NCBI GenBank assembly: GCA_963740455.1
Contig: CAVUEF010000012.1
Coordinates: 148,298-212,297, forward strand
Length of the DNA stretch: 64,000 nucleotides
Direction of reading: 5' to 3'
Source of the DNA: an uncultured beta proteobacterium
Lineage (GTDB): Bacteria; Pseudomonadota; Gammaproteobacteria; Burkholderiales; Burkholderiaceae_C
The notes under the pieces were generated by a model, which had not been told where the DNA came from, ran no database searches, and saw only the letters and a program-made list of their open reading frames with translations. Both the position numbers and the translations under genes were made by a program. Shown piece by piece: positions 14,242 to 46,279 of this stretch; the first letter of the stretch is position 1; each line of letters begins with the position of its first letter.

Positions 14242-14271
14242 TACTAGGCGTGTAGCCTAGGTATTTGCCTA

Positions 14272-20743: not shown

Positions 20744-20758
20744 TGGCATAGAAAGTGC
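20744..20758 (+). promoter_or_regulatory. candidate sigma-54 (-24/-12) promoter upstream of the PEP-CTERM gene
   Basis: TGGCAT-AGAAA-GTGC against consensus TGGCAC-N5-TTGC, with correct GG/GC spacing, about 40 nt upstream of ATG 20799. Confidence 0.35.
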
Positions 20759-20798
20759 GTGTAGATGCGCGTAACCAAGTCTATGAGGGGATCAGATA

Positions 20799-21797: not shown

Positions 21798-21915
21798 TTC
21801 AAAGCTTGAAGTCGTAATCAATCGTCAGCGGCGCATGGTCGCTGAAGCGCCGGTCGAGATAGATGGACTCGCGCCTGGCCAGCGCCGCGAGGCCGGGCGT
21901 CGCCAAGTGATAGTC
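21798..21915 (-). repeat. 118-bp direct repeat copy inside the intact xthA 3' end
   Basis: Pairs with 20164-20281 (2 mismatches). Confidence 0.9.
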
Positions 21916-22602
21916 CAGACGCCAGCCCACATTGTTTGTGCGCGCTTGGCCGCGATTGCTCCACCAGGTGTATTGCTCGGCCCTGTCGTTGAGGGTGCGG
22001 AACACGTCGACCAGGCCGCCTTCGCCCAGCAGTCGGGTCATCCAGTCGCGCTCCTCGGGCAGGAAGCCGCTGTTCTTCAGATTGCCCTTCCAGTTCTTCA
22101 GATCTATCTCCTTGTGCGCGATGTTCACGTCGCCCACCAGAATGAATTCGCGCTCGGCCTTCAATTCCATCAGGTGGTCGTAGATCGCCTCCAGAAAGCG
22201 AAACTTTGCCTGCTGGCGTTCCTCGCCGCTGGAGCCGCTCGGGAAGTAGCAGCTGATCAAGCTGAGCTTGCGGCCCGGCTTGTCGTAGCGGGTCTCTATC
22301 CAGCGTCCCTCCAAGTCGAATTCGGCCACGCCGATGCCGCTGCGCACATCGCTGGGCGCGTGGCGCACATACAGACCGACGCCTGAATAGCCCTTCTTCT
22401 GCGCGAAGTGAAAGTGGCCTTGGTGATGGTGCGTGGCCTCGAACTTTCCGCTCACGTCGGAGGCCTGAGCCTTGACTTCTTGCACGCCCACTGCATCGGC
22501 GTCCTGCTGGACGAGCCAGTCAAAGAAGCCTTTCGTCGAGGCGGATCGGATGCCGTTGAGGTTGGCGGTAATGAGGCGCACGTTGGAAATCCCAAGTTTC
22601 AA
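21799..22602 (-). CDS. xthA: exodeoxyribonuclease III
   Basis: EEP-fold motifs: ANLNGIR, QEVK, GDVNIAH, WWSNRG, FSDHAPL. The real start may be GTG 22581 (VRLITANLNGIR). Confidence 0.9.
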   Translation of the reverse strand: MKLGISNVRLITANLNGIRSASTKGFFDWLVQQDADAVGVQEVKAQASDVSGKFEATHHHQGHFHFAQKKGYSGVGLYVRHAPSDVRSGIGVAEFDLEGRWIETRYDKPGRKLSLISCYFPSGSSGEERQQAKFRFLEAIYDHLMELKAEREFILVGDVNIAHKEIDLKNWKGNLKNSGFLPEERDWMTRLLGEGGLVDVFRTLNDRAEQYTWWSNRGQARTNNVGWRLDYHLATPGLAALARRESIYLDRRFSDHAPLTIDYDFKL

Positions 22603-26968: not shown

Positions 26969-28206
26969 GACTCGACCGCAGCGATGGGCACGCGGCGTTT
27001 TGTCTTGAACGGCGTGACCGCAAGCCGCGCGGCGCCGTCCGCCAGGCCGATCTCGGCATCGTCCAGGTAGCAGCCCGGGTCTTCGGCCCAGGGATTGCCG
27101 CTGACCTGCTCGGCGCGCACGCGCGTATTGCCGCCGCAGATGTCGAGATGCACGCAGCTGGCGCAGCGCCCTTCGACCGGTCGCGGCTGCGCCTTGAGCC
27201 CTGCCATCAAAGGCTCGCTGGTGTCGCTCCAGATCAAAGAGAAGGGCCGCTCGCGCACATTGCCCAAGGTGTGGTGCCACCACATCGTGTCGGGATGCAC
27301 CTGACCCAGGTTGTCGATATTGGCGACATTCACGCCCGACGAGTTGCCACCCCAGGCGACCAGGTGCTCGCGCAAGGCGGCGCCGAAACGCGCGTGCAGG
27401 TCGGGGTGGCGGCGCGCCAGCCAGTGCAGCAGCCAGGGGCCGTCGGCATCGTTGTTGCCGGTCACATATTCTTCGTCCAGGCCGTCGCGAGCCGCCTGCC
27501 AGGCGCGGTCGAACAGCAGGTCCAGGGTATCGCGCGTGGCCGCGAACTGCGCGTCCTTGGCGCGATGGATGTTGCCGCGGCCGGCGTAATTCAGGTGCGA
27601 GAAATAGAACTTGTCGACCTGTTCGTCGCGCATCAGTTGCAGCAAGGCCGGCAGGTCATGGGCGTTGAGCGCCGTCATCGTGAAGCGCAGCCCCACCTTC
27701 ACGCCACGCGCATGCAGATGGCGCACCGCGGCCAGACTGCGATCGAAGGCGCCTTCGAGGCGGCGGAATTTGTCGTGCGTTTCGCGCAAACCATCCAGGC
27801 TGATGCCGACATAGTCGAAGCCGGTGGCGGCAACCCGGTCGGCCATCGACTCATCGATCAAAGTGCCGTTGGTCGACAGACCCACATAGAAGCGCATGGC
27901 CTTGGCGCGGTCGGCGATCTCGAACAGGTCGGGCCGCATCAAGGGCTCTCCGCCGGACAAAATCAACACCGGCACCTTGTAGGCCTTCAGGTCGTCCATC
28001 ACGCCGAACACTTCGGCCGTGTTCAGCTCGCCCTCGTAGTCGTGGTCGGCCGACAGCGCGTAGCAGTGCTTGCAGGTGAGATTGCAGCGGCGTATCAGGT
28101 TCCAGATCACCACCGGACCGGGCGGCTGGTGCGCGCGCGCAACCGCCATCGCACCGCTGGCTTGAGCGTCGGCCAGCAGGCGCATGAATTGTGAGATACG
28201 GAACAT
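26965..28206 (-). CDS. nirJ: radical SAM heme d1 biosynthesis protein NirJ
   Basis: CNLTCKHC radical-SAM motif. C-terminal Cys cluster (CASCVHLDICGG). Position within the nir cluster. Confidence 0.9.
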   Translation of the reverse strand: MFRISQFMRLLADAQASGAMAVARAHQPPGPVVIWNLIRRCNLTCKHCYALSADHDYEGELNTAEVFGVMDDLKAYKVPVLILSGGEPLMRPDLFEIADRAKAMRFYVGLSTNGTLIDESMADRVAATGFDYVGISLDGLRETHDKFRRLEGAFDRSLAAVRHLHARGVKVGLRFTMTALNAHDLPALLQLMRDEQVDKFYFSHLNYAGRGNIHRAKDAQFAATRDTLDLLFDRAWQAARDGLDEEYVTGNNDADGPWLLHWLARRHPDLHARFGAALREHLVAWGGNSSGVNVANIDNLGQVHPDTMWWHHTLGNVRERPFSLIWSDTSEPLMAGLKAQPRPVEGRCASCVHLDICGGNTRVRAEQVSGNPWAEDPGCYLDDAEIGLADGAARLAVTPFKTKRRVPIAAVES

Positions 28207-32228: not shown

Positions 32229-33992
<1,764 letters not shown>

Positions 33993-34036
33993 TCAATACT
34001 GGCTGCGATGGTCAGCCAGACACGGCATCGCCGTCC

Positions 34037-34050
34037 TTGAACCAGTTCAA
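34037..34050. promoter_or_regulatory. FNR/Dnr/NnrR-type binding site in the nirS-nirE divergent promoter region
   Basis: Perfect palindrome TTGAACCAGTTCAA (TTGA-N6-TCAA). Centred 84 nt upstream of the nirS ATG and 65 nt upstream of the nirE ATG. Confidence 0.75.
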
Positions 34051-34108
34051 GGACCCATGCACCTTAGGCCTGAACAATGCGCCAATGCCATCAGAAGGAC
34101 TCGAGCGA

Positions 34109-34933
34109 ATGAGTGTGATCAACGAACCGCTGCGCTTTGATGCGCCAACGCTCATGCCGCGCCCGGCCAAGGTGACGCTGGTGGGCGCCGGGCCGGGCGA
34201 TCCCGAGCTCTTGACGATCAAGGCCGCCAAGGCGCTGGAAGCGGCGACGCTGGTGCTGATCGACCATTTGGTGGGACCGGAGGTGCTGGAGCTCGTCCCT
34301 GCGTCGGCCCGGCGCATCTATGTCGGCAAGGAGTCCGGCCACCACAGCATGCCGCAGCAGGCCATCATCGAGCTGATGATAGATCTCGCCCGCAGCGGCA
34401 AGCCGGTGTTGCGGCTCAAAGGAGGTGACCCCTACATCTTTGGCCGCGGCGGTGAAGAGGCCCAGGCGCTGGCCGGCGCCGGCGTGCCGTTCGAAGTGAT
34501 CCCCGGCATCAGCGCGGCGCAGGGCGCTGCGGCGCTCGCCGGCATACCGCTGACGCACCGCGACCATGCCTGCTCGCTGGTGCTGACGACCGGGCATTTG
34601 CGCGGCGAAGGCGCCAAGCGCGGCGTCGATCTCGACTGGGGGCTGTTGGCCCGCCCCAACCAGACGGTGGTGGTCTATATGGGTGTGGCCACGCTGCCGG
34701 TGATCTGCCGCGAACTGGTCGCGCATGGCTTGCCCGCCGCCACACCGGCAGCGACCGTGGAGCGCGCCACGCGCGCCGACCAACGCACGGTGGTGGGCAC
34801 CCTGGCCACGCTGCCCGGGCTGGCTCTCGCGCATGACGTGAAGTCACCGGCGCTGATCATCATCGGCGGCGTGGTGTCGCTGCACGCGACGCTGGGATCA
34901 TCTGCTGTCGAGCAGCGACTGGCCGCGCCCTGA
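34109..34933 (+). CDS. nirE: uroporphyrinogen-III C-methyltransferase (NirE/CobA)
   Basis: GAGPGDPELLT motif and RLKGGDPYIFGRGGEE. Start ATG 34109 is preceded by GAAGGA (alternative ATG 34085). Divergent from nirS. Confidence 0.9.
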   Translation: MSVINEPLRFDAPTLMPRPAKVTLVGAGPGDPELLTIKAAKALEAATLVLIDHLVGPEVLELVPASARRIYVGKESGHHSMPQQAIIELMIDLARSGKPVLRLKGGDPYIFGRGGEEAQALAGAGVPFEVIPGISAAQGAAALAGIPLTHRDHACSLVLTTGHLRGEGAKRGVDLDWGLLARPNQTVVVYMGVATLPVICRELVAHGLPAATPAATVERATRADQRTVVGTLATLPGLALAHDVKSPALIIIGGVVSLHATLGSSAVEQRLAAP

Positions 34934-34942: not shown

Positions 34943-36850
34943 TCAGCCTTGAGGCGGCGCAGCCGACGGCAAGAACGCATCCGAAAAGCACATGTCGTCG
35001 CCGAGCCCGTGCGCGATGAAGGTCGGCACCGCCGCCTCGACCATCTTGACTGAGCCGCACACATAGACCTCGAACCCGCGCATGTCGGGAAAGTCGGCCA
35101 GCATGGCCTCGTGGACCAACCCGCGCCGTCCGGTCCATGCATCAAGCGGTTCGGCATCCGAGAGCACCGGCACGAAATGGAAGTTGGCATGCTCGCGCTG
35201 CCACTGTTCGGCAAGTTCGACCATGTACAGATCTTGCGGACGACGCGCGCCCCAGTAGAGCCACATCGGCCGCGTCAAGCCGCGCTGGAACGCGTCTTCG
35301 ACAATGCTCTTGACCGGCGCAAAGCCGGTCGCACCCGCCACGAACAGGATAGTCCGCTCGCTCTCGCGCAAGGTGAAGTTGCCCAGCGGCCCTTCGAAGT
35401 GAAGCGCGTCGCCCACCTTCATGTCGGTGAACACATGGCCGGTGAACCGACCGCCCGGAATGCGCCGCACATGCAGCTCGATGCGATCATTGTGATGCGG
35501 CGCATTGGCGAACGAGAATGCGCGTCGCCGGCCGTCGTCGGGAACGATGTTGATGTACTGGCCGGCGACAAAATCAATGCGCTCGGCGCCGGGCAGCACA
35601 ACGGTGAGCCGGGTCAGATCTTCGGTGAGGCGCTCAATTCTCTCGATGCGCCCGACATGGGCGCGCGGCGTCTCCCGCACCGCGTCCATCTCGCCCGCCA
35701 CCTCGATTTCGAGGTCCGACAAAGGCGTGGCGCAGCACATCAAGGCCTTGCCTTGGGCGCGCTGACTGTCTGGCAAGGCAGCACGCTGGTAGGCGCCATG
35801 GTCGACGCTGCCGTGCGACACCGTGCACAGACACACGCCGCAGCCGCCGTTGCGGCACTCATAGGGCAGGTTCAGGCCTTCGCGCAAGCCGGCCTCGAGC
35901 AAGGTCTCGCCGGCGCGGATGGCGACGGGGTCTTGCCGGCCTTGCACCGTCATGCGGAACTCCCCTGCCTTGGCGCGCCTGAATTTCGGCGGAAGCCAGG
36001 GCAGCGCCGCGATCAGCAAGGTCGCTGCGCCGAGCAGCGCCCATACGTTTGCCAGCGGCCACACATAGAGCAGCGGAAACACCGTCAGGTAGAACCAGTC
36101 GAGTTGCAGCAGCGCCGGCGCGATGTCGAGCTGCGCCGCGCCGCCCTGGCTCAGCGCGGGCTTGATCAGCGACAGTGCCAGCAGCGTCAACGCCACGCTG
36201 ATCAGAATCGGTCGCGGCGGGAGCGTCTTGGCTTTGGGAACGCGCTGCACATGGATCCACATCAGCAGCAGCACGAGCAGCGGAATGCCGATATGCATGA
36301 ACGACAGCAGCGAGAAGAAGCGGTCGTTGACGCTGGTCGTGTAGATGAAGTTGCGCACCAAGCTGCCACCAAAACCGGGCAGCCAGTCGAGCCACTCGAA
36401 GCTGGCCACAATGACGAACTGCGCCAGCTGATCCCAGGGCAGCATATAGCCGTTGATGCCCGATATATAGACGCCCCAGATCAGCGCCACGCCGCTGACC
36501 CACGAGAACCAGCGAAAGCCGCGCATGCGGTTGAAGGCAAAGTGGCGCAGCATGTGCAGCAGCATCGTCAGCACCATCGCGTCCGAGGCATAGCGATGCA
36601 GGCTGCGCAAAATGCCGCCCGCGAACCACTGGCCGTGCGTCAAGGCCTCGACCGAGCCGTACGCGCCGGCCACACCGGTCTCGAAAAACGCATACAGGTA
36701 CAGCCCGCTGCCGGCCACCAGCCAGAACAGCGCAAAGCTGATCTCGCCCAGGTGGTACAGGGGATTGAGCCGGTCGCCAAAGGCGCGGTTGAAGAGCGCC
36801 TCGACACGCATGAAACACCACTGCAACAGCGACTGAAGGCGCGTCATCAT
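34943..36850 (-). CDS. fusion protein: diheme cytochrome b (bc1-type N-terminal domain) + [2Fe-2S] ferredoxin + FAD/NAD(P)H ferredoxin-reductase module
   Basis: 635 aa. Two bis-His pairs spaced 14 residues apart (RSLHRYASDAMVLTMLLHMLR; FMHIGIPLLVLLLMWIHVQR). Plant-type cluster motif CRNGGCGVC..CC. FNR motifs RAFSFAN, GPLGNF, AGATGFAP, YVCGS. ATGA overlap with the upstream gene. Confidence 0.8.
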   Translation of the reverse strand: MMTRLQSLLQWCFMRVEALFNRAFGDRLNPLYHLGEISFALFWLVAGSGLYLYAFFETGVAGAYGSVEALTHGQWFAGGILRSLHRYASDAMVLTMLLHMLRHFAFNRMRGFRWFSWVSGVALIWGVYISGINGYMLPWDQLAQFVIVASFEWLDWLPGFGGSLVRNFIYTTSVNDRFFSLLSFMHIGIPLLVLLLMWIHVQRVPKAKTLPPRPILISVALTLLALSLIKPALSQGGAAQLDIAPALLQLDWFYLTVFPLLYVWPLANVWALLGAATLLIAALPWLPPKFRRAKAGEFRMTVQGRQDPVAIRAGETLLEAGLREGLNLPYECRNGGCGVCLCTVSHGSVDHGAYQRAALPDSQRAQGKALMCCATPLSDLEIEVAGEMDAVRETPRAHVGRIERIERLTEDLTRLTVVLPGAERIDFVAGQYINIVPDDGRRRAFSFANAPHHNDRIELHVRRIPGGRFTGHVFTDMKVGDALHFEGPLGNFTLRESERTILFVAGATGFAPVKSIVEDAFQRGLTRPMWLYWGARRPQDLYMVELAEQWQREHANFHFVPVLSDAEPLDAWTGRRGLVHEAMLADFPDMRGFEVYVCGSVKMVEAAVPTFIAHGLGDDMCFSDAFLPSAAPPQG

Positions 36851-38250
36851 GGCAAGTTCCGGGTCGCAGCCGGGCGCCGCATCGCGCGAATCATGACGAC
36901 CACAAACAGCAGCCCGCCAACAATGGCCACCAGGCCGCCCAGGCCCATCAACCCCATGCCGGCGATCTCACCGAAGCCGCGCAGCACCTGCTCGGCGCCG
37001 GCCACCTTGCGCTGCACGCCATAGCCCCCCGACCAGACCAGGCCGGTGATATGCATCAGCTGGCCCACGCCGTAGACGCCGGGCTGCAAGGCCGCGAGGC
37101 GGCCGCTCGGCGCGGCGTAACCCAATTGCGGCAGCAAGTGATAAGCCAGGCCCATCAGCGCCAGCGTGACCCCGACGATGCAGCCGTGGTAATGCGCCGG
37201 AATGCGCACGTCGGCACCATTGATGAAGACGCCGATCAGCCCGCCCGACGCGAACAGCACGATGGACCAGATGAGTGCTGCGCGCAAGGCGCGGGTCGTC
37301 GTCTCGCTGCGCGGCATGGACGGCAGTGCCAGCACCACCGCCAAGGCAATCGGCACGATCGCCACGCCGCCGCCCAGGCGCATCGCCCAGGTCAGCAGAT
37401 TGCGGTGCTCGACCGACGCGATCGGGTAGGCGAGATAGGCGTAAGGCGTGACGAATACGCCCACCAGCGCCAGCACGAACATCAGCAAGGCGATGCGGGG
37501 GCTCAGCAGCAGCTTGGCGCCACACGCGCTGGCCAGCCACAGCCAGGCCACCAGCATCAGCAAGGTCCAGGTGAACTGGAGCGCATGCCCGCCGCCCCAG
37601 AACAGGACTTCGTAGTACATCTTGCCGACCAGCATCGGCGGCGTTGTCGCGAACGACCAGGCAAAGGCCAGCAAAGCCACCGCTGCCGAGACGGCGGCGG
37701 CATTCAGCCCGAAGTGCAGCACACCATCGCCGCCGAAGCCCAGGCCGAGCTTGGGCGCAGTGAACAAGCTGCGCAGCACGAGCACACCGGCGCCGAGCGC
37801 AAAAATCAGCAGGCCGGCCATGAACAGCGGGCGCTCAAGCACCGGGATGTAATTGGCCATGATGGGGTCGCCGTGCCCGATGAACGCCGCCAGCGCCATC
37901 AGGCTGGCACCCGTCCCGCTCAAGCCCAGAGCCGCCCAGCCCCAGGCCAGGCCGCGCGTCGATCCGTTCAGACTCCAGAGCAGCCCCGCCAGCGCCACAA
38001 ACCACACCAGCACCGACAGATCGACATGCACGACCAGCGCGACGCGAAAGAAATCCGCGCCGGGCAGGATCTGGTTGATGAGCGGCGTGCGCGACGCCAC
38101 CAGCAGCACCGAGAACAAGCCCGCGCCGATCAGCGCAATCAGTCCGAGCCACAACCAGGCGCGCGCCAGTTGACGCTGCGTGTCGCGCGGTACCGCCAGC
38201 GTGTACGGGTGGCCGTCGGCCAGTGAAGGGTCGAATGGAGTGGATGTCAT
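36847..38250 (-). CDS. highly divergent heme-copper-oxidase subunit-I-like 12-TM protein (stand-alone; NnrS-like alternative not excluded)
   Basis: 467 aa. Histidines at HCO-like spacing: H75 (VVHVD), H222 (FWGGGHALQF, compare cbb3 WWYGHNAVGF), E281-H282 where HCOs have HH, H353/H355 (AHYHG). ATGA overlaps at both ends. Confidence 0.5.
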   Translation of the reverse strand: MTSTPFDPSLADGHPYTLAVPRDTQRQLARAWLWLGLIALIGAGLFSVLLVASRTPLINQILPGADFFRVALVVHVDLSVLVWFVALAGLLWSLNGSTRGLAWGWAALGLSGTGASLMALAAFIGHGDPIMANYIPVLERPLFMAGLLIFALGAGVLVLRSLFTAPKLGLGFGGDGVLHFGLNAAAVSAAVALLAFAWSFATTPPMLVGKMYYEVLFWGGGHALQFTWTLLMLVAWLWLASACGAKLLLSPRIALLMFVLALVGVFVTPYAYLAYPIASVEHRNLLTWAMRLGGGVAIVPIALAVVLALPSMPRSETTTRALRAALIWSIVLFASGGLIGVFINGADVRIPAHYHGCIVGVTLALMGLAYHLLPQLGYAAPSGRLAALQPGVYGVGQLMHITGLVWSGGYGVQRKVAGAEQVLRGFGEIAGMGLMGLGGLVAIVGGLLFVVVMIRAMRRPAATRNLP

Positions 38251-38765
38251 CGCAGTGTGATCCCGCCCTTGGCCGGATCGAAGTCGATCACCAGAATTTG
38301 CGCCGGTTTCAATGTCACGCTGGCTTCGCGCACAAAGTCGAAGCCTGGCGTGCGCACATCGTTCTTCAGCCGGATCGCCAGCTGATGGGTGCCGGCGCTG
38401 ACCTGCAGGCGCTGGTAGAAGGCCGATGCACCGTCGCGCGACAGGCCCGAAGGCATCGCTACATGGTGCAGCACGCGCTTGCCATCGAGGTCGAGCTCCA
38501 CCGTGATCGGCGAGCGCTCGCGCGGACACACCACCGGCGCGCGCATATTGGGCGGCAGCTTGGCCAGCTCTTGCGGCGTCGCCTTGTGGCACGCCGACAC
38601 CGGCAAGCCCTGGTGGTTGAAGCTGAACTTGATCAAGGCCTGGTCGGGCGCCAGGTGGCGGTACGGCGGCCAGTTGGAGAACGCGCCAATGAACAGCGCG
38701 AACAATCCGTACAGCAGCGCCTGCGCGATCCAGGCCTTCGGGGTGAATGGGGTCTTGTCAGTCAT
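38247..38765 (-). CDS. membrane-anchored periplasmic protein of unknown function (single N-terminal TM helix plus a beta-rich domain of about 130 aa)
   Basis: 172 aa starting MTDKTPFTPKAWIAQALLYGLFALFIGAF. No CXXCH and no CuA motif. 8-nt overlap upstream and ATGA overlap downstream. Confidence 0.6.
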   Translation of the reverse strand: MTDKTPFTPKAWIAQALLYGLFALFIGAFSNWPPYRHLAPDQALIKFSFNHQGLPVSACHKATPQELAKLPPNMRAPVVCPRERSPITVELDLDGKRVLHHVAMPSGLSRDGASAFYQRLQVSAGTHQLAIRLKNDVRTPGFDFVREASVTLKPAQILVIDFDPAKGGITLR

Positions 38766-40296
38766 GGGATGGGGTAAGGCATTGTGCCCGCAAGGCAAGC
38801 CGCTGGCGCAAGCGCAGCAAGGCCGCTTGCAAGGTGGACTCTGCGCCCGCATCGGCCCAGGCCAGTTCGAGTTGATCAAGTGGCACCGAGTCGCGCAGGT
38901 GGGGCTCACGCAGCCCTTTCAGCCGCTCGGCGGTCCAGCGTTGGCCGAGCCGGAATTCGCAGCCGCCTTGCGAGCAGCCGCTGACCAGCACGCCGTCGGC
39001 ACCGTCGCGCAACGCGTACTCGATGAACGAGGGCGGCAGCTGGCCGGCGCACATCAGGCTGAAGACAACAACATCGGGGGCTTCGAGCGCGCTGACCTTG
39101 GCACCGCAATCGCAGCCAAACACGACGATCTTGTGCGGCGCATCGGCCAGTCCTTGCGAGAGGCGCCGGCGCAGTGCGCCGATGGGGGCGGACGGCATGT
39201 CGATGCCGGTGACAAGTTCCGCCGCGCCGCGAAACGGTGTGGACGAGGGGCAGGCGCCAACGCAGATGCCGCAGCTCGCGCACAGGTCGGCGTCGACCTG
39301 TGCCATCTGGCGGATGCTGCGCACGGGATGCGCCACCATCGTCACCGCGGCATACGGGCAGTCGTCGAAGCAGCGACGGCAGCCGTTGCAATTGGCCGCG
39401 TCGACCACGGCAATCGGCGCCACCGCAGCTTGCGGCAGATAGGGCAGCGCGAACAGCAGCAAGAGCGCCGCCGACAGCAGCGTCCAGACGAAACCGGGCG
39501 AGGTCGCGTAGACGAGCGGATGCACAAACAGGAGCAGCCAATCAAAGCTCAGCGCGCCGGGCACGCTCGCCAGATCGGCTGGTGCCTGACTCATCACCGG
39601 CGCGACCAGCGCCAATCCGAGCAGGGTCAAACCGGTACCGATGGCCAGCGGGCGCGGCGGAAACACCGCCGCGCGGCTGATGCGCTGAATATGGAACCAC
39701 AGCGCGAACACCGACAGCAGCGGCACGCCCAGGTGCACGAACACCAGCAGCGAGAAGAGGCGGTCGCTCAGCGACGCCGCGTTGAGAAAGTTGCGCGTCA
39801 ACGGCGCGGCAAAGAGCGGCAGCCGGTCCAGCCACTCGGCCGTGGCGAGCGCCGAGAACTGGCCGAGCTGGTCCCAGTTCAACCAGAAGCCGCCAATCGC
39901 GCTGATGAAAACCAGCAGCAGCAAGGGCACGCCGGTGAGCCACGAGAAGCGGCGAAAACCGCGGTAGCGGCCGAACAGCGCCTCGCGCAGCAGATGGCCG
40001 AGCATCAGCACGACAAAGGCATCGGCCGCATAGCGGTGCAGGCTGCGCAGCACGCCGCCCAAATACCACTGTTGACGTGAGAGCTGGTCAATTGATCGAT
40101 ACGCGTCGGCCACCGAGGTATCGAGCGCCGCATACAGGTAGATGCCGCTCAAACCCAGCAACCAGAACATCATGAAGGCCAGCGTGCCCAGGTGCCGCAG
40201 GGGATTGAGGCCGGAGCCGAACGCGCCATCGAAACCGTGCTCGCAGCGCCGGTAGCCGGCCAGCGCCAGCAGGCGGATCGATCGCAGCGGGTGCAT
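38758..40296 (-). CDS. fusion protein: diheme cytochrome b (paralog of the 34943-36850 N-domain) + 2x[4Fe-4S] ferredoxin + MvhD/FlpD-like domain
   Basis: 512 aa. Bis-His pairs RSLHRYAADAFVVLMLGHLLR and FVHLGVPLLSVFALWFHIQR. Cluster motifs CNGCRRCFDDCP and CASCGICVGACP. MvhD-like segment VVFGCDCGAKV..MCAGQLPPSFIEYALRDGADGVLVSGCSQGGCEF. Confidence 0.75.
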   Translation of the reverse strand: MHPLRSIRLLALAGYRRCEHGFDGAFGSGLNPLRHLGTLAFMMFWLLGLSGIYLYAALDTSVADAYRSIDQLSRQQWYLGGVLRSLHRYAADAFVVLMLGHLLREALFGRYRGFRRFSWLTGVPLLLLVFISAIGGFWLNWDQLGQFSALATAEWLDRLPLFAAPLTRNFLNAASLSDRLFSLLVFVHLGVPLLSVFALWFHIQRISRAAVFPPRPLAIGTGLTLLGLALVAPVMSQAPADLASVPGALSFDWLLLFVHPLVYATSPGFVWTLLSAALLLLFALPYLPQAAVAPIAVVDAANCNGCRRCFDDCPYAAVTMVAHPVRSIRQMAQVDADLCASCGICVGACPSSTPFRGAAELVTGIDMPSAPIGALRRRLSQGLADAPHKIVVFGCDCGAKVSALEAPDVVVFSLMCAGQLPPSFIEYALRDGADGVLVSGCSQGGCEFRLGQRWTAERLKGLREPHLRDSVPLDQLELAWADAGAESTLQAALLRLRQRLALRAQCLTPSHD

Positions 40297-40302
40297 CAGG
40301 AC

Positions 40303-41130
40303 TCAGCTCGGCCGCGCTGCGCGCCGCAGGCGCCGCTGGTTGCGCCATTCGAGCAGAAAGAACCAGACCATGGCCAGCGCGAAGGTCACGCCGCCAGCGA
40401 TCTCGATGACCAATCCGTAATTCGTTCGGTAGGTGCCGGTCACCGGGTCGTACACGGTGCACAGAATGCGCACGCGGTCAATCAGCTCGGACAGCGGCAG
40501 GCCGGCCGGCATCGGCTGGTCGCGCAGCAGCAGCCGCATCGGCTCGCCGAGCTTGTCGCGCGACAGGTTTTCGCCATACACCTGGGCATAGACGCGACCG
40601 CGCGGGTCGAGCACCGACACCGCCAGCAAGTGATCGAAACCGGCCGGCGTGGCCACATAGCTGAAGCCGAAGTCGCGCGTCAAGGCGTCGACCGAGGCCT
40701 GCGGCGGGCTCAGAAACTGCCAGTTCGGCGCCTTGATGCGCATTTGCGCCGCAAACGAGCGCATCGCCGCCGGCGAATCGGACGGCTGGTTGAAACCGAT
40801 GCTGACGACGCTGAACTTGTCGGCACCGAACACCTGGCTCAATTGGTCGACGGCCTCGGCCAGCGACTTGGTGGTGGTCGGACAGACCTGGAAGCAACCC
40901 GTGTAGATGAAGCTCACCAACAGCGGCTTGCCGCGATAGTCGGCGAGCCGCACCAAGCGACCTTGCGTGTCGAGCAGTTGATGCGCGCCCACGTCGCGGC
41001 CGATGGCGGCCTGGCTGTCGCGCAGGGCGCTCGCCGCGTCAAGCGCGGGCGTGGCGCTACCGGCCGGTTGCGCAGCGAGCGGCGCGACCAGCACGGCCCA
41101 CAGCAGTGCCAGCGCAGCGCGGGAGTTCAT
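40303..41130 (-). CDS. senC: SCO1/SenC copper chaperone with a C-terminal membrane extension
   Basis: Start MNSRAALALL (ATGA overlap with the ctaB stop). CFQVCP (CxxxC) motif and conserved His (FDHLLAVS). C-terminal TM helix. Confidence 0.85.
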   Translation of the reverse strand: MNSRAALALLWAVLVAPLAAQPAGSATPALDAASALRDSQAAIGRDVGAHQLLDTQGRLVRLADYRGKPLLVSFIYTGCFQVCPTTTKSLAEAVDQLSQVFGADKFSVVSIGFNQPSDSPAAMRSFAAQMRIKAPNWQFLSPPQASVDALTRDFGFSYVATPAGFDHLLAVSVLDPRGRVYAQVYGENLSRDKLGEPMRLLLRDQPMPAGLPLSELIDRVRILCTVYDPVTGTYRTNYGLVIEIAGGVTFALAMVWFFLLEWRNQRRLRRAARPS

Positions 41131-42026
41131 CGCAACAGACCGTCGAGCGTCGCTGCCGCAAGCACCATGCTCAGCTGCACCAGCGACGCGAAGAACGCGC
41201 CCATCGCCGTCTTGCGATTGGTGTCGCGCAACAGCTGCCAGGTCTTGTGCACGAAGTGCGCGCCGCCCGTGGCAGCGCCCATCAAGTAGATCGGGCCGGC
41301 GCCAAAAAACGCTGGCAACAACGACGCGCCAACCAGTGCCAGGGTGCTGTAAAAAACAATCTGCGCCGCACGCTGCGGCCCCACCACGACGGGCAGCATG
41401 GGCACACCTGCGGCCGCATAGTCGGCCTGATTGGCGATGGCCAGGCTCCAGAAATGCGGTGGCGTCCAGAGGAACAGCACGCATGCCAGCAGCAGCGGCA
41501 GCGCGCTGATCTGGGGGTTGACCGCGGCCGCGCCGGCCAGCACGGCAAAACTACCGGCCAGGCCGCCGATCACGATATTCAGCGAGCTGCGCCGCTTCAG
41601 CCACAAGGTGTAGACCACGCCATAGAAGAACGCACCCAGAAACGTGTACAGCGCGGCCATACCGTTCAACACCAGCCAGGCGGCGGCCACCGCACCTGCC
41701 AGTAGCAGGGCGATCAGCACCAGCCAGGCCGGCGAATGCGGCAACGCGCCGGTCACGAAAGCCCGACCGCGCGTGCGCGCCATCAGGCGATCGGTGTCGG
41801 CCTCGGCGTACTGGTTGAACGCGCCGGCCGCGGCCGACGACACCAGTACCGACAGGGCCAGCACCACCACTTGCCAGACAGCGGGCGCAGGGCCCGGCGT
41901 GACCGCCAGCCCGACCAGCGCGGTGATCATGATCATCACGCCGATGCGCAGTTTGAACAGGCCGAGCACCTCGCGGACGAGGCCGACGGCAGATCGTTGC
42001 GCGGGATGTGCCGCGGTCGTGCTCAT
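41127..42026 (-). CDS. ctaB: protoheme IX farnesyltransferase (heme O synthase)
   Basis: 299-aa UbiA-family polytopic protein (..NQYAEADTDRLMARTRGR.., ..WTPPHFWSLA..). Confidence 0.9.
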   Translation of the reverse strand: MSTTAAHPAQRSAVGLVREVLGLFKLRIGVMIMITALVGLAVTPGPAPAVWQVVVLALSVLVSSAAAGAFNQYAEADTDRLMARTRGRAFVTGALPHSPAWLVLIALLLAGAVAAAWLVLNGMAALYTFLGAFFYGVVYTLWLKRRSSLNIVIGGLAGSFAVLAGAAAVNPQISALPLLLACVLFLWTPPHFWSLAIANQADYAAAGVPMLPVVVGPQRAAQIVFYSTLALVGASLLPAFFGAGPIYLMGAATGGAHFVHKTWQLLRDTNRKTAMGAFFASLVQLSMVLAAATLDGLLR

Positions 42027-42030
42027 GACA

Positions 42031-43731
42031 TCAGCTCAGTCCCCAGACCTGGGACAGGTACTTCCAGTTGATGAAGTAGTACAGCACGAAGGACACCAGG
42101 AACACCATCGCCAGCGCGAAGGTACCCGGCGCGGCAAACCCGGCCGAACCGTAGGTCTGTGCCGCGATGGTCGGCGCCGTGGGTGGAATCGGTGTGAACT
42201 TCGGGCTCACCGTGCCGCTGTCGAGCTTCTTGCCCCACAACAGCGAACCGACGGTCACAAAGATGTAGATCCCCCCGCCGACAATGGCGGCAATGCCGAA
42301 GATGCCGACCAGACCCATCATCAGGTAGGCGGCGCCCGGCCATTCATAGGCCATCGGCGAGCCGTTGAAGGCCAGGTCCCAGTGGCGGCGCGGAACACCC
42401 AGCGTGCCCGCACCCATCATGACCAGCACGAAGCCGTACATCGACAGGCCGAACAGATAGGGCTGCCACTGTGCCAGCTTGGGCGCGATCATCTCGCGCT
42501 TGAACAGCACCGGGATCAGAAAGTAGGTCAGCGCCATGAAGGTCAGGGTGGTCCCGATCACCACCGTGGCGTGGAAATGGCCCGGCACGTAGATGGTGTT
42601 GTGGATGATCATGTTGAGCTGTTCTGTGCCCATCATGACGCCCGAGATGCCGCCCAGGAAACCGAAGCCGATGATCGAGATGAACACGCCCGAGAACACC
42701 GGGTTGCCCCAGGGCGCCTTGCGCAGCCATTCGAACAGGCCCTTGTTGTAGCCCTTGGCGCGCTGCGCGACTTCGATCGCGCCGGGGATGGTGAGTCCGT
42801 GGATCATCGAGGCCAGCACCGCGAAATACATGAAGTAGCTGGTGTTGACGACCTTCCACGCGGTCGACATGCCGGGGTCGGCGAGCAGGTGGTGTGCGCT
42901 GGCGAGTTGCAGGAACAGGATGTAGAGCAGGAAGGCGCCGCGGCTGACGCGCTCGCTCATCGGCTTGGCGCCGAACGCGATGGCCGCCACCGCGTACCAG
43001 ATCGAGATGTGCGCGGCCACGTTGATCTGCTGCGACGAGTGGCCGAAGGCCCACCAGATGGTGCGGTACATGAGCGGATCAACCGCCTTGATGACGCCCA
43101 CCGACAGCAAGAAGGTGGGGATCAGGATGATGGCGCCCGACGCGATCGTGAACACGGCGATGATCGCCGCGGTGATGGCACCGAACGTGACCAGCGGCAC
43201 CGAGCCCTGGTAGGTCTTTTCGCGCTTGGCCACGACCAGCGTGCCGAAGAAGACAAAGCACGCGATAAGCGCGCCGACGGCGAACAGAATCAGTCCGAGG
43301 TAGAAATGCGGCGCGGCCATCATCGGCACGTACGACGTCATCATGACACTGGAGCCGCCCTGGAACACGGCGACATTGTTCATGATCCCGCCGATCAGCA
43401 TCAAGGCGAAGGCCAGCCACGCCATCTTGGGCGTCGCGAGCCGACAGCGCAACAGCGTTGACGACGCGAAATACAGGACGGCGATCTCGAAGAAGATGAC
43501 CCAGAAAATCAGCATGTCGATGCCGTGCGCGGTGAGCACCTGGTAGAAGGTGTCGGCCGCGAGCCAATGCACGGCGGGCCAGCGAGTCAACGCCACGCCG
43601 ATGGCCAGGATGCCACCGATGAGCAGGAACACGACCGCGACGAACGCGTTGGCCTTCATCAATTTTTCGGCATTGGCCTCGAATTGCAGTCCCGAGCGCG
43701 GGCAGGTTCGATAAGTTGTTGTTACGGACAT
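42031..43731 (-). CDS. heme-copper oxidase subunit I, B-family-like, lacking the cross-link tyrosine (candidate NO reductase of the sNOR/eNOR type)
   Basis: All six His ligands are present (LTAHG; WWAFGHSSQQ; ASAHHLL; PGHFHAT). Helix VI reads GHSSQQ instead of GHP(E/I)VY. ATG 43731 is preceded by GGAGG (alternative ATG 43755). Confidence 0.8.
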   Translation of the reverse strand: MSVTTTYRTCPRSGLQFEANAEKLMKANAFVAVVFLLIGGILAIGVALTRWPAVHWLAADTFYQVLTAHGIDMLIFWVIFFEIAVLYFASSTLLRCRLATPKMAWLAFALMLIGGIMNNVAVFQGGSSVMMTSYVPMMAAPHFYLGLILFAVGALIACFVFFGTLVVAKREKTYQGSVPLVTFGAITAAIIAVFTIASGAIILIPTFLLSVGVIKAVDPLMYRTIWWAFGHSSQQINVAAHISIWYAVAAIAFGAKPMSERVSRGAFLLYILFLQLASAHHLLADPGMSTAWKVVNTSYFMYFAVLASMIHGLTIPGAIEVAQRAKGYNKGLFEWLRKAPWGNPVFSGVFISIIGFGFLGGISGVMMGTEQLNMIIHNTIYVPGHFHATVVIGTTLTFMALTYFLIPVLFKREMIAPKLAQWQPYLFGLSMYGFVLVMMGAGTLGVPRRHWDLAFNGSPMAYEWPGAAYLMMGLVGIFGIAAIVGGGIYIFVTVGSLLWGKKLDSGTVSPKFTPIPPTAPTIAAQTYGSAGFAAPGTFALAMVFLVSFVLYYFINWKYLSQVWGLS

Positions 43732-43744
43732 GGTGCCCTCCGCC

Positions 43745-44284
43745 TTACTTGACATAGATGCGGCCCACCATCGTGTGATGGCCGATGCCGCAGTATTCGT
43801 TGCAGACTACCGAGAAGGTACCGGCCTGGTTGGGCGTGACGGTGACCACATGCTCGTAGCCCGGCACGATCTGGATATTGATATTGGCCGGCTGCAGCGA
43901 GAAGCCGTGGTTGTAGTCCATCGACGTCAGGTGCAAGCGATAGGTCTTGTCCTTCTCGAACTCGACGATGGGCCAGAATTTCCAGAGGCTTGCGACGATG
44001 TAGACATCACTGCCGGGCGGCGGCGCAACAACCGGAATCTTGTCGGCGGTCTCGGTGCGCACCGTGTACTTGTCGACCACCGCCTGGGCCTTGGCGGTGA
44101 ACATCGCCGAGGTGGTCTTGTAGGTCTCGGTGGAGAGATTCTGTTTGCCGTAGACATGCCAGCCGACCATCATGGCGAACATGATCAGACACCAGATCAG
44201 GGCAATCACGATCCAGGTGCCTTCGACACGGTCCAGCGGGTGTTTCCACCAAAGTCGTTCTGCGGGGGGCAGGATAGCGCTCAT
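43745..44284 (-). CDS. heme-copper oxidase subunit II with an intact CuA site
   Basis: 179 aa. One TM helix and a cupredoxin domain with DYNHGF and CNEYCGIGHHTM (H..CxExCGxxHxxM). Confidence 0.85.
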   Translation of the reverse strand: MSAILPPAERLWWKHPLDRVEGTWIVIALIWCLIMFAMMVGWHVYGKQNLSTETYKTTSAMFTAKAQAVVDKYTVRTETADKIPVVAPPPGSDVYIVASLWKFWPIVEFEKDKTYRLHLTSMDYNHGFSLQPANINIQIVPGYEHVVTVTPNQAGTFSVVCNEYCGIGHHTMVGRIYVK

Positions 44285-44308
44285 ATTGCTCGTCCTCGTG
44301 ATGGTTGT

Positions 44309-44464
44309 TTACTTGGCCAAAGGCACGGTGAGGATGTCGATGACGCCCCACAACGTGTAAACAACCATCGGCACCATCACGCCCAGAAAGAGCAGCAGAA
44401 ACGGGTTGTCGAGCAATTGCTGCATCATCGGAATCTTCTCGTCGGGGTTATTCGTGTCGCTCAT
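44309..44464 (-). CDS. small single-TM oxidase-associated subunit
   Basis: 51 aa (MSDTNNPDEKIPMMQQLLDNPFLLLFLGVMVPMVVYTLWGVIDILTVPLAK). AGGAGA lies before the ATG. 24 nt upstream of subunit II. First gene of the operon. Confidence 0.6.
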   Translation of the reverse strand: MSDTNNPDEKIPMMQQLLDNPFLLLFLGVMVPMVVYTLWGVIDILTVPLAK

Positions 44465-44522: not shown

Positions 44523-44536
44523 TTGACTTGAACCAA
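44523..44536. promoter_or_regulatory. imperfect FNR/Dnr-like box upstream of the oxidase operon
   Basis: TTGACTTGAACCAA (TTGA-N6-CCAA, one mismatch in the right half), about 65 nt upstream of ATG 44464, in the divergent region shared with ctaA. Confidence 0.3.
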
Positions 44537-44618
44537 GATAAGAATGCGCGATGTTGACATCAATGTTCCACGCTGTGCTCGCTCATATCTACGGGTTAGA
44601 CCTATCAGGGAATTCCGC

Positions 44619-45581
44619 ATGAACATGACCCAGCGTCGACAAACCTGGCTGCGACGTGCGGCCCTGTTGTGTGCGGCACTGGTGCTGGCCATCACCAGTC
44701 TGAGCGCCTTCATTCGGCTCTCGCAAGCGGGCTTGGGTTGCAGCGAATGGCCGCAGTGTTATGGCAGCCGCTTGCGTGACGCACAGCATGGCCGCGTGGC
44801 CAGCGTCACGGACAGCGCTGCGGTCGTCGCCGCGCGGCTCACGCATCGCGTGGTGGCGGTGACCGCCTTGCTGCTCGTGATTGCGATGGTGGTGCTGTGC
44901 TTCGGCAATCGGCCCTTCCTGCTGCGTGAGGGCATGCTGGCGTTGGCCTTGCTCGCCTTGGCGCTGGGATTGGCGGTACTCGGCCGCTGGACCGCAGGGA
45001 CGCGCGTGCCGGCGGTGGCGATCGGCAACTTGCTGGGCGGTCTGCTGATGCTGGCGCTGAGCTGGCGGTTGGCAGCCCGCGCGGCGCCGCGGCTCGACTC
45101 GCGATTGCGCTTCTGGGCAAGGATGGGGGCGGCAGTGTTGCTCATCCAGGTGACTGCGGGGGCACTGCTCAGCGCATCGTATGCGGGTCTGAGCTGTGCC
45201 GGAGCGCTGGATTGCCTGCGCACGGCGCAAGCCGCGCAGTGGCCTTGGCACGCCTTGAACCCGTGGCGCGAACCGGTGTTCGACGCCATGCAAAGCGCGC
45301 CGAACCCCGCGGGCGCACTCGTCCAACTGGTGCACCGCGGCGGCGCGCTGCTGACCTTGCTGGTGTTGGCCCCGCTGGGCGTGGCGGTGCTGCGTGGCGC
45401 GCACCAACGCGAGGGCGCGGCACTGCTGGCGCTGCTGGTCATCCAGATCGGCGTGGGCGTGCTCATGCCGATCGCGTCCCTGCCGCTGGGCTTGGCGCTG
45501 GCTCACAACATCGTTGCCGCATTGTTGCTGGCGACACTGGTCCGCCTAGAATGCGCTTCCATGAGTCAGGAGAAGCCCTAG
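44619..45581 (+). CDS. ctaA: heme A synthase (COX15/CtaA family)
   Basis: Start MNMTQRRQTW. GLGCSEWPQCYG motif, conserved His in TM helices (LTHRV, LVHRG, LAHNI), 8 TM helices. Confidence 0.85.
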   Translation: MNMTQRRQTWLRRAALLCAALVLAITSLSAFIRLSQAGLGCSEWPQCYGSRLRDAQHGRVASVTDSAAVVAARLTHRVVAVTALLLVIAMVVLCFGNRPFLLREGMLALALLALALGLAVLGRWTAGTRVPAVAIGNLLGGLLMLALSWRLAARAAPRLDSRLRFWARMGAAVLLIQVTAGALLSASYAGLSCAGALDCLRTAQAAQWPWHALNPWREPVFDAMQSAPNPAGALVQLVHRGGALLTLLVLAPLGVAVLRGAHQREGAALLALLVIQIGVGVLMPIASLPLGLALAHNIVAALLLATLVRLECASMSQEKP

Positions 45582-45596
45582 TGGAAATGCGCCAAT

Positions 45597-46279
45597 TCGA
45601 CGTGCCGCGCTACCTGTCGGTGCTGCCGCTGTTCAACGACATGAGCCCGACCGAGTTGGAAGGCCTGGCCAGCGGCTGCACGCTGCGCCGGTTGGCGCGC
45701 GGCGACGCGGTATTTCGCGTGGGCGAACCCTGCGAAGCATTCCACGTCACCGTGATGGGCCAGGTCAAGCTGTTCGCGATTTCGCCCGCGGGTCAGGAAA
45801 AAGTCATCGAGCTGGTCGGCCCCGGCCAGAGCTTTGCCGAGGCGCTGATGTTCACCGACAAGCCCTACATCATCAATGCGCAGGCGCTCACCGACACGTT
45901 GCTGCTGACTGTGCAAAAGAGCGCCGTGCTGGCCGAAATCGACCGGGACAGGCGCTTCGCGCTGCGCATGCTGGCGGGCATTTCGCGCCGTCTGCACGCG
46001 CTGGTGGGCGACGTCGAAGCCTATGCGCTGCACAGCGGTTTGCAGCGCGTGATCGGCTACCTGCTGCGCGACCAGGCGCCCGAAGATGAAAGCTCGAATG
46101 GCGAGGTCACCGTGTCGCTGCCGGTGAGCAAGGCCACCATCGCGTCGCGCTTGTCGCTGACGCCCGAATACTTTTCGCGCGTGCTGCACGAGCTGGAAGC
46201 CAAAGGCTTTATCGAGGTCGACAAGCGCGACATACGGATTCGCGACCCGCAGGCGCTGGCACGCTACCAGGCGTCCTGA
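45597..46279 (+). CDS. Crp/Fnr-family transcriptional regulator, Dnr/NnrR type
   Basis: cNMP-binding-like fold and a C-terminal HTH with the E--SR recognition motif (TPEYFSRVL). No N-terminal FNR Cys cluster. Sits beside the nir and oxidase genes. GTG 45591 is an alternative start. Confidence 0.85.

Follow-up and report, generated by a model that had tools for sequence, protein, structure and literature searches.

Four conserved membrane redox genes of an eNOR operon: a possible haem A maturation and electron-supply module

A 64,000-nucleotide stretch of DNA from an uncultured beta proteobacterium (GenBank assembly GCA_963740455.1, contig CAVUEF010000012.1, positions 148,298-212,297 of the forward strand; hereafter the window, numbered from its first letter) contains at 34943-44464, on the minus strand, nine co-directional and tightly packed open reading frames (ORFs), g1-g9, as read from the ORFs and their translations. 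The first five form a typical operon of the nitric oxide reductase eNOR together with two cofactor-maturation enzymes, and the remaining four encode two cytochrome b fusion proteins (g6 and g9), a membrane-anchored beta-sandwich protein (g7) and a relative of haem-copper oxidase (HCO) subunit I (g8). The reading favoured here, to which a probability of roughly 40% was assigned, is that g6-g9 and the divergently transcribed haem A synthase gene ctaA would constitute a maturation and electron-supply module for the haem A (or haem As) of eNOR and not a second terminal reductase. A broader and more tentative proposal is that the g8 family may be a widespread HCO-derived assembly factor for haem-A enzymes and that g9 and g6 may be the missing electron donors of bacterial haem A synthase. 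An earlier annotation of the window (the first-pass annotation) had described g6-g9 as a self-contained module feeding an HCO-like catalytic subunit; this description is opposed by the loss of metal ligands in g8, by the finding of g6, g7 and g9 with g8 in eNOR loci only, wherever enough flank was available, and by the haem O/A genes that neighbour g8.

eNOR is now counted among the most common producers of N2O in nature, studies of it have covered its two core subunits alone, and across dozens of Beta- and Gammaproteobacterial genomes it is accompanied by four further conserved membrane redox proteins. The eNOR half of the operon is known, and g6-g9 are real, widespread, noticed in passing and without a characterised counterpart. 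New here are the ligand loss in g8, the breadth of the g8 family, its link to ctaA and ctaB in aa3-type oxidase clusters, its fusions, the affinity of g9 to oxygenase reductases and a conserved Fnr/Dnr box.

The subunit-I-like protein g8 and its family

g8 (36847-38250, minus strand, 467 aa) was matched by the COX1 family of Pfam with only 42.9 bits, by no NCBIfam model and, using phmmer, by no entry of the PDB. The AlphaFold2 model of the protein (predicted local distance difference test, pLDDT, 92.8) has 12 helices arranged in the HCO subunit I fold, and the top Foldseek matches of this model were the subunits I of ba3, aa3 and cbb3 oxidases and of nitric oxide reductase (NOR), the best being ba3 subunit I with a template-modelling score of ~0.7. 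Alignment of the g8 profile to that of g3, the eNOR subunit I of the same operon, was carried out using hhalign (probability 99.6) and placed g8 H75 on the low-spin haem ligand of g3, H353 and H355 on its helix-X haem ligands, R414-K415 on the Arg pair at the haem propionates and H222 on the first CuB/FeB His, with Y272-A273 of g8 at the position of the helix-VII HH pair, which is lost. Two of the three CuB/FeB His are gone and only H222 is left, giving neither the three His of an HCO nor the two His and one Asp of gNOR; position i+4 after H222 is Phe, so that the cross-linked Tyr is absent as well, and an invariant Gln (Q225) is found at i+3. Across 120 diverse g8 homologues, H75, H222, Q225 and H353-Y-H355 were invariant or nearly so. 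Because the haem ligands are kept and the helix-VII His pair is lost, g8 is most probably a two-haem protein lacking a binuclear centre, and the two missing His and the missing Tyr speak against the catalytic role proposed for it in the first-pass annotation. No redox-active partner subunit of the CuA cupredoxin or cytochrome c type was found for g8, g7 having no family match, no metal motif beyond one Cys pair and no cupredoxin among its fold matches. The pair E281-H282 was considered as a replacement metal site of the 2-His-1-carboxylate type and rejected, as it is invariant in close relatives but has His in 35 of 120 sequences family-wide.

Among the best database matches, identity is ~73% for g8 and ~90% for eNOR subunit I, i.e. 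g8 evolves faster. The NCBI pipeline label "cbb3-type cytochrome c oxidase subunit I" is carried by homologues of both proteins; on g8-type genes this label is wrong, and oxidase counts are therefore inflated in genome surveys. Surveys of oxidase and NOR content would misclassify the genes of eNOR subunit I and of g8 alike.

The g8 family is large (6,682 matches in one search; 1,494 clusters at 50% identity, 624 with E <1e-30), and a metagenome scan using distant g8 members as queries returned many canonical eNOR clusters together with g8 in other settings. In one aa3 cluster, confirmed by Pfam (L133), the gene order is coxII-coxI[GHPEVY]-cox11-coxIII-SURF1-x-ctaB / g8 / ctaA. The same position between ctaB and ctaA is occupied in the aa3 clusters of three further loci (L096, L097 and L148); g8 stands directly beside ctaA in two others (L092 and L110) and beside SCO1 and SURF1 in L095. 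Flanks of 3 kb or more on each side were available for 13 non-eNOR loci; ctaA, ctaB or SURF1 was present in 10 of them, and none of g6, g7 and g9 was found. A signature common to all contexts comprises H75, N133-Y134, E214, W218, H222, Q225, T287, M290, H353-Y-H355, Q389 and R414-K415. The g8 family is not tied to NO reduction, its common neighbours being genes for haem O/A synthesis and oxidase assembly, and a haem-handling role for g8 is favoured because these neighbours are shared and the metal site is lost. Fusions of g8 were found to CtaB (P0246/L083, encoded just after eNOR-like subunits II and I), to a cytochrome b domain (P0121) and, in four cluster representatives, to a C-terminal TPR domain; the contigs with the TPR and cytochrome b fusions were short and their context was uninformative.

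Two of these loci show further features. The eNOR-like subunit I beside the CtaB fusion (L083, 954-2483, plus strand) carries the motifs GHPSQQ and SEHHIL and is a divergent eNOR variant, only 53% identical to g3, and no COX2 Pfam match was detected in the subunit II of that locus. At 12195-14324 (minus strand) of L110/L113 and in its surroundings, g8 lies between a 470-aa CtaA with two nirS-like genes and a 709-aa multi-[4Fe-4S] protein, with no eNOR genes within 10 kb, which makes this a third type of context, linked to nir and not to eNOR.

Proteins encoded with g8 and a possible route to haem A

g6 (38758-40296, minus strand, 512 aa) is a six-helix dihaem cytochrome b fused to a 2x[4Fe-4S] ferredoxin and an MvhD/FlpD [2Fe-2S]-type domain, as assigned from Cytochrome_B, two Fer4 and FlpD/MvhD matches in Pfam and NCBIfam. 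In 97 homologues H87, H101, H188 and H202, the eight ferredoxin Cys and the four MvhD Cys were invariant; the latter (C395, C416, C441 and C446) belong to an FlpD fold that scored 50.5 bits with PF02662 and matched the C-terminal region of HdrA2 with an E value of 6e-24. g9 (34943-36850, minus strand, 635 aa) is likewise a six-helix dihaem cytochrome b, fused to a plant-type [2Fe-2S] ferredoxin and a ferredoxin-reductase module binding flavin adenine dinucleotide (FAD) and NAD(P)H (Cytochrome_B, Fer2, FAD_binding_6 and NAD_binding_1 in Pfam and NCBIfam), and H85, H99, H186 and H200 together with C332, C337, C340 and C372 were invariant in 87 homologues. The Cytochrome_B domains of the two proteins scored ~61-62 bits, are 52% identical to each other and each contain the four His expected of a two-haem cytochrome b; the even number of helices would place both C-terminal domains in the cytoplasm. 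Both have the motif DW[F/L] at what we take to be the place of the PEWY loop of the Qo site, and LPWDQ, presumably akin to LPWGQ of other cytochromes b. The PEWY loop itself is absent, and neither a Rieske protein nor a cytochrome c1 or f is encoded in the operon or the conserved cluster.

The soluble half of g9 is most similar to the NADH-dependent reductase components of multicomponent oxygenases. Its nearest relatives were a P450 reductase, BenC, T4moF and MmoC; in the PDB, 5ogx, the P450 reductase, was matched with an E value of 1e-53 and 1krh with one of 2.5e-42, and the NCBIfam scores for BenC (211 bits) and MmoC (187 bits) were both under the equivalog cutoffs. CtaA would be the sole oxygenase-like candidate partner for g9 in the cluster.

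g7 (38247-38765, minus strand, 172 aa) has 2,419 homologues, all unnamed. An AlphaFold2 model built on an alignment of database homologues (pLDDT 87.8) predicts one transmembrane helix and eight strands forming a periplasmic beta-sandwich, in which the Cys pair C59 and C80 is invariant and no other metal motif is present. A degenerate cupredoxin or subunit II was considered for g7 and discarded, since a Foldseek search against the PDB gave only Ig-like and CBM-type folds with E >5e-3 (best 6e-3) and no cupredoxin. The order of g7 and g8, a membrane-anchored beta-sandwich before an HCO-like gene, recalls that of subunits II and I as an architectural analogy only.

To follow these genes across genomes, the g8 alignment was scanned against one genome per species, which gave at least 595 matching stretches; the best 80 were taken, all from Beta- and Gammaproteobacteria, and gene contexts were judged in 82 genome loci, in all of which g8 is present by construction, being the search query. 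Carriers include Rhodoferax, Curvibacter, Piscinibacter, Ramlibacter, Comamonas, Castellaniella, Simplicispira, Noviherbaspirillum, Dokdonella, Steroidobacteraceae and Rhodocyclaceae. Among the cultured carriers are Castellaniella sp. GW247-6E4, Comamonas faecalis JCM 17561, Simplicispira lacusdiani, Ramlibacter cellulosilyticus, Ramlibacter monticola, Piscinibacter caeni MQ-18, Curvibacter sp. PAE-UM and Noviherbaspirillum sp. ST 5-3. Two loci obtained by look-up of g8 homologues (L001 and L002) have the same nine genes, accompanied by the divergent ctaA and by the Crp/Fnr gene, the DNA around them being otherwise unrelated. As the gene set recurs in dozens of genomes, the nine-gene arrangement is not a product of chance. 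Wherever the contig was long enough g8 lay inside an eNOR cluster, and g6, g7 and g9 were never found with g8 away from such a cluster where the flanks allowed judgement. A gene-neighbourhood comparison, suggested in the first-pass annotation for g6-g9, bears out a module conserved in dozens of genomes, the four genes being seen together only with eNOR. The gene orders g5-g6-g7-g8-g9 and g5-g9-g7-(g6)-g8 both occur. g6 is missing in, for example, L020, L030, L031, L043, L066 and L070 and g9 in L034, L053 and L064; g6 and g9 are individually dispensable, and g7 is found wherever g6 or g9 is found. In the eNOR clusters g6-g9 are placed between ctaB/SCO1 and ctaA. Of the related genome loci, 69 had 3 kb or more of flank on each side, and ctaA was present in 49 of these. 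The gene is either divergent and upstream or comes after g8/g9 on the same strand (at least 14 loci). A tblastn search of plasmids with g8 gave no match.

In the favoured scheme g8 would be a subunit-I look-alike that holds two haems and acts as a membrane scaffold or carrier, taking haem O from CtaB, presenting it to CtaA and/or holding haem A for eNOR subunit I. g9 would pass electrons from cytoplasmic NAD(P)H through FAD and [2Fe-2S] to an n-side haem b and on to a p-side haem b, g6 would offer a second cytoplasmic entry through its [2Fe-2S]/[4Fe-4S] centres, and the cytochrome b domains of both would conduct these electrons through the membrane to p-side haems in g8, in CtaA or in both, with g7 as a putative periplasmic adaptor that would link the cytochrome b proteins to g8. 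We infer these steps (how g8 handles haem, by which path electrons reach CtaA or g8, and what g7 does) from the features described above. The haems of CtaA reportedly lie near the periplasmic face in the B. subtilis structure, as do those of oxidase subunit I. Haem A synthase requires O2 and a reductant, and the delivered electrons would be the reductant for this O2-dependent step under microoxic denitrifying conditions, when an Fnr/Dnr-type regulator would switch the genes on. In yeast, the haem A synthase Cox15 depends on a ferredoxin, Yah1, and a ferredoxin reductase, Arh1 (PMC7140478), and a preprint on Ferrigenium asks how the haem A of eNOR is made under near-anoxic denitrification (bioRxiv 10.64898/2026.01.22.701106).

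The eNOR operon, its regulation and its surroundings

The first half of the operon had been described in the first-pass annotation as CuA-type and NOR-like, which is borne out and can be given more precisely as eNOR, from a Gln that stands where other family members have the cross-linked Tyr of the active site. g3 (42031-43731, minus strand, 566 aa) matched COX1 of Pfam with 223 bits; its closest solved structures are B-family oxidases (7deg_A, E 2e-47; Thermus thermophilus ba3, E ~1e-43), with A-family oxidase structures reaching only E ~1e-7. The start at 43731 is preceded by a GGAGG motif and gives a protein 100% identical to a 566-aa database entry, and is more likely than an upstream ATG at 43755 that would give 574 aa. 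In g3, GHSSQQ is aligned to GHPVVY, with Gln for the cross-linked Tyr, a motif also present in homologues from related loci. This exchange is the published diagnostic of eNOR (PMC8756737), and g3 was assigned as eNOR subunit I because of it. The His ligands of the non-haem metal and of the haems are kept in g3 (GHSSQQ, the helix-VII HH of SAHHLL, the helix-X HFH and LTAHGID). A database search with g3 returned matches that were all of at least 87% identity and thus included no distant eNORs.

g2 (43745-44284, minus strand, 179 aa) is eNOR subunit II, with one transmembrane helix and a cupredoxin domain (COX2 in Pfam and CoxB/NosZ C-terminal matches) in which the CuA motif, read from the translation, is complete (H126 ... 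C162-N-E-Y-C166-G-I-G-H170-H-T-M173). The first gene of the operon, g1 (44309-44464, minus strand, 51 aa, its start preceded by GAGGAG), encodes a single-helix membrane protein kept at the same place in related loci, which may be a small subunit of eNOR comparable to the subunit IIa found in ba3 oxidase. g4 (41127-42026, minus strand, 299 aa) is a haem O synthase of the CtaB/CyoE type (TIGR01473, 255.7 bits against a curated cutoff of 210.3; UbiA in Pfam), and g5 (40303-41130, minus strand, 275 aa) is a SCO1/SenC copper chaperone with a CFQVC motif and a C-terminal membrane anchor (PF02630, 56.8 bits). eNOR carries a modified haem A at both haem sites (PMC11214002), a requirement that fits the presence of ctaB inside the operon and of ctaA adjoining it; for g2/g3 themselves, haem A-type cofactors are suggested by this ctaB/ctaA gene linkage. 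Purified two-subunit eNOR is active alone (PMC11214002), and g6-g9 are therefore dispensable for NO catalysis itself.

The gaps between the genes are 24 nt (g1/g2), 4 nt (g3/g4) and 6 nt (g5/g6), and 13 nt at the g2/g3 junction, which would become an 11-nt overlap if the upstream ATG of g3 were used; stop and start codons overlap as ATGA at g4/g5, g7/g8 and g8/g9, and g6 and g7 overlap by 8 nt. The run of nine minus-strand genes with three ATGA overlaps and one 8-nt overlap was accordingly confirmed as first annotated, and every domain assignment made in the first-pass annotation was reproduced by profile searches using Pfam and NCBIfam, in which g1 and g7 matched no family. A scan for promoters and terminators inside the operon gave no promoter-like and eight terminator-like sequences against 8.1 expected, i.e. 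background.

Between g1 and ctaA lies a divergent intergenic region of 79 nt, which contains the Fnr/Dnr-type box TTGGTTCAAGTCAA (44523-44536), ~65 nt upstream of the g1 start and agreeing with the consensus TTGAT-N4-ATCAA at 8 of 10 positions. With this number of positions taken as the threshold, 50 of 60 related loci have such a box upstream of g1, compared with 2 of 60 control segments. ctaA (44544-45581, plus strand; PF02628, E 1.7e-30) is divergent from the operon and part of the conserved cluster, and directly 3' of it lies a gene for a Crp/Fnr regulator of Dnr/NnrR type (~45587-46279, plus strand, its start codon being inferred); used as a tblastn query, this ORF matched genes in L001 and L002 that have cNMP_binding and HTH_Crp_2 domains. 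Over the whole window, 34 sites with no more than two mismatches from TTGATNNNNATCAA were counted against 10.0 +/- 3.4 in shuffled sequences, none of which reached 34; this excess may reflect many Fnr/Dnr sites or a compositional effect. The CtaA of the cluster scored 106 bits with Pfam COX15-CtaA, compared with 264-377 bits for the CtaA of aa3-type loci, and has Asn (N162, transmembrane helix 4) where 30 of 84 aligned CtaA sequences have His. N162 was rejected as a marker of an eNOR-specific subtype, as the eNOR loci are split into 42 with Asn and 22 with His and show no clean association.

On the other side of the operon, a tetrapyrrole methylase gene resembling nirE (33938-34933) is found between g9 and nirS (32229-33959, minus strand, 576 aa, with cytochrome c and cytochrome d1 domains), followed beyond nirS by nirF-like, NirDL-like and nirN-like genes. 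The placement of the operon between nirS with the haem d1 genes and ctaA with a Dnr/NnrR-type regulator was correct in the first-pass annotation. In line with its report that norCB and qnor are absent, no COX1/NorB-type domain was present in any of the 30 large ORFs scanned outside the operon. A second protein with cytochrome c and cytochrome d1 domains (25412-27283, minus strand, 623 aa) is a NirN- or NirS-like paralogue of nirS, whose d1 domain was matched in two stretches and which has an N-terminal extension of ~120 aa. Upstream of the nir genes, G+C falls to 0.55-0.62 at ~12000-22000, including 14882-16573 (minus strand), compared with ~0.65 elsewhere, and a DDE transposase ORF lies inside this stretch, which suggests an inserted or mobile segment. 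At 6284-12007 (plus strand) a single ORF of 1,907 aa, about twice the normal length of UvrA, combines several ABC ATPase modules with the interaction and DNA-binding domains of UvrA and looks like a duplicated or class II UvrA-like protein.

Alternative explanations and comparison with known systems

Several points weigh against a function in haem A maturation. The adjacency of ctaA and ctaB is equally expected if g8 belongs to another haem-A-containing enzyme. To our knowledge, canonical aa3 systems make haem A without g8, g6 and g9, and because they manage without them the module is not generally required for haem A. A maturation step would also be a costly use of two large redox proteins that carry six or seven cofactors. 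In the metagenome scan, g8 was also found among housekeeping genes on two low-GC contigs (L089 and L099), and each of the g8 fusions comes from a single short contig or one cluster representative and may be an artefact of assembly or gene calling. In the proteome of Ferrigenium straubiae, g8, g9 and g6 were detected, with g8 scored between eNOR subunit I and Sco1 (bioRxiv 10.64898/2026.01.22.701106), which would also fit a structural partner.

The best surviving of the alternatives, which we nevertheless regard as unlikely, is a separate NAD(P)H-fed terminal reductase in which electrons from g6 and g9 would reach the haems of g8, and g8 with g7 as a cofactor-less "subunit II" would reduce NO or scavenge O2 at a haem-only site, thereby assisting eNOR and NirS by detoxification or by protection from O2. 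A conserved path can be drawn on paper from the ferredoxin-reductase module through [2Fe-2S] and two b haems to the two haems of g8, and the cytochrome b::g8 fusion suggests direct contact; the path would end, however, in a protein in which, family-wide, only one of three CuB/FeB ligands is left and the Tyr is missing, whereas all characterised HCO oxygen and NO reductases have a binuclear centre (PMC11214002). The g7-g8 order mimics that of subunits II and I, but g7 has neither a cupredoxin fold nor a metal motif. The Fnr/Dnr box, the position of the operon beside nirS in the window and in several related loci, and the expression of the proteins in denitrifying F. straubiae (bioRxiv 10.64898/2026.01.22.701106) are consistent with a role in denitrification, but the same g8 signature is found in aa3 clusters and beside ctaA without the electron-input genes g6, g7 and g9, these genes never occur with g8 away from eNOR where the 82 loci could be judged, and g8 evolves faster than eNOR subunit I.

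A still lower probability was given to a supercomplex of the cytochrome b fusions and g8 on eNOR, which would couple quinol oxidation and NO reduction to the reduction of NAD+, or would deliver electrons of NAD(P)H or quinol to eNOR itself without the use of cytochrome c. The strict co-occurrence of g6, g7 and g9 with eNOR in the loci examined would be accounted for, and DW[F/L] at the assumed PEWY position together with LPWDQ could point to quinol; however, the passage of electrons from quinol to NAD+ is uphill by ~0.4 V and needs bifurcation, for which no Rieske-type high-potential acceptor is encoded, and the soluble half of g9 falls among NADH-oxidising reductase components. A quinol:NAD+ oxidoreductase with reverse electron flow was put forward in the F. 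straubiae preprint (bioRxiv 10.64898/2026.01.22.701106), but the carriers are mostly heterotrophic relatives of Burkholderiales, Rhodocyclales and Xanthomonadales with no obvious need for it. A SoxABCD-like architecture, with cytochrome b feeding an HCO, and weak NCBIfam matches to SoxA, SoxB and SoxC also favour the supercomplex, but eNOR already has a CuA entry and is active as two subunits (PMC11214002), and the g8 copies of aa3 clusters and the CtaB fusion would be left unexplained. That g8 is a haem-based NO or O2 sensor or decoy without turnover, its haems kept reduced by g6 and g9 and regulating or protecting the assembly of haem-A enzymes, would suit the kept high-spin haem pocket, with only His222 and Gln225 on its distal side, and the spread of the family over oxidase types, but is very improbable, as no signalling domain lies in or beside g8, the cluster regulator is a standard Crp/Fnr protein and direct evidence is nil. 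The remaining probability belongs to something else.

If g6-g9 do serve haem A supply or insertion, the electron donor of bacterial haem A synthase, the delivery of haem A to subunit I and the way in which a cofactor pathway that needs O2 can serve an anaerobic respiratory enzyme would all become testable, and the loading of eNOR with haem A by denitrifiers at very low O2 would be explained. If they form an NAD(P)H-fed reductase or a supercomplex instead, the energetics of denitrification in the carriers would need revision. The operon is a concrete handle on questions of bacterial haem A biogenesis and eNOR assembly.

Of the known systems, the eNOR of Rhodothermus marinus (PMC11214002) is the one that the first half of the operon resembles: g2/g3 have the same B-family-related subunit I with Gln for Tyr, the CuA subunit II and a need for haem A, for which ctaA lies within the operon or beside it, and eNOR occurs, as here, in denitrifiers without cNOR and qNOR. 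The purified two-subunit enzyme corresponds to the first three genes only, and the genes g6-g9 are not described in that paper; NO reductase activity without O2 reductase activity is known biochemically only for the R. marinus enzyme (PMC11214002), and that of the window is a putative NO reductase. The operon of F. straubiae strain KS (bioRxiv 10.64898/2026.01.22.701106) shares eNOR II, eNOR I, haem O synthase, Sco1, g9, g7 (as a hypothetical protein), g8 and g6, and g9, g8 and g6 were found in its proteome under denitrifying Fe(II) oxidation, but its order is g9-g7-g8-PerM-g6 with no ctaA in the operon, compared with g6-g7-g8-g9 and a divergent ctaA in the window. The statement in the first-pass annotation that the second half of the operon matches no characterised system stands in that g7 and g8 have no NCBIfam model, g8 has no PDB match and database names are hypothetical or generic, but these genes were already listed in this 2026 preprint, which names g8 an "eNOR scaffold protein of unknown function" and uses "Cytbc1CCC-like proteins 1 and 2" for the cytochrome b fusions (bioRxiv 10.64898/2026.01.22.701106). 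For g9 it suggests the function of a quinol:NAD+ oxidoreductase, which differs from the haem A reading favoured here. The idea put forward there that the fusions are unusual and possible Ferrigenium markers does not hold, because they occur in dozens of Beta- and Gammaproteobacterial genomes.

With the subunit I of T. thermophilus ba3 oxidase, a B-family enzyme, g8 shares the 12-helix fold, both sets of haem His, the first CuB His and the Arg/Lys pair at the propionates, but it lacks the helix-VII His pair, the cross-linked Tyr and a redox-active subunit II, and the sequence similarity is marginal. g6 and g9 resemble the cytochrome b of bc1 and b6f complexes and SoxC in the four invariant His for two b haems and the helix C/D motifs, and in Sulfolobus SoxABCD a cytochrome b is likewise encoded with an HCO-type protein and a copper-less membrane-anchored partner; g6 and g9 differ in their six helices, in the Fe-S or flavin domain at the cytoplasmic C-terminus, in the lack of a Rieske protein and of a cytochrome c1 or f, and in having DW[F/L] for PEWY. 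In its order of domains, with plant-type [2Fe-2S] first and the binding domains for FAD and NAD(P)H after it, the soluble half of g9 agrees with the BenC/MmoC-type reductases, which are soluble and act with a cognate oxygenase, whereas g9 is fused to a six-helix cytochrome b.

In its proposed role alone, g8 is comparable to Surf1/Shy1, CtaM and CbaX, membrane proteins of oxidase clusters that help haem A into subunit I; there is no kinship of sequence or fold, g8 would be a full-length paralogue of its client, and SURF1 co-occurs with it in aa3-type clusters. The closest parallel for the electron supply is the yeast system of Cox15, Yah1 and Arh1 (PMC7140478). In the window the donor, g9, is fused to a transmembrane dihaem cytochrome b, and its reductase module is of the BenC/MmoC and not of the adrenodoxin-reductase type; the window additionally encodes an HCO-like protein, g7 and a second Fe-S protein, and the link to CtaA is a proposed one. 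What the two have in common is a haem A synthase (CtaA/Cox15) genetically linked to donors of the NAD(P)H, FAD and [2Fe-2S] type, both modules of which are present in g9.

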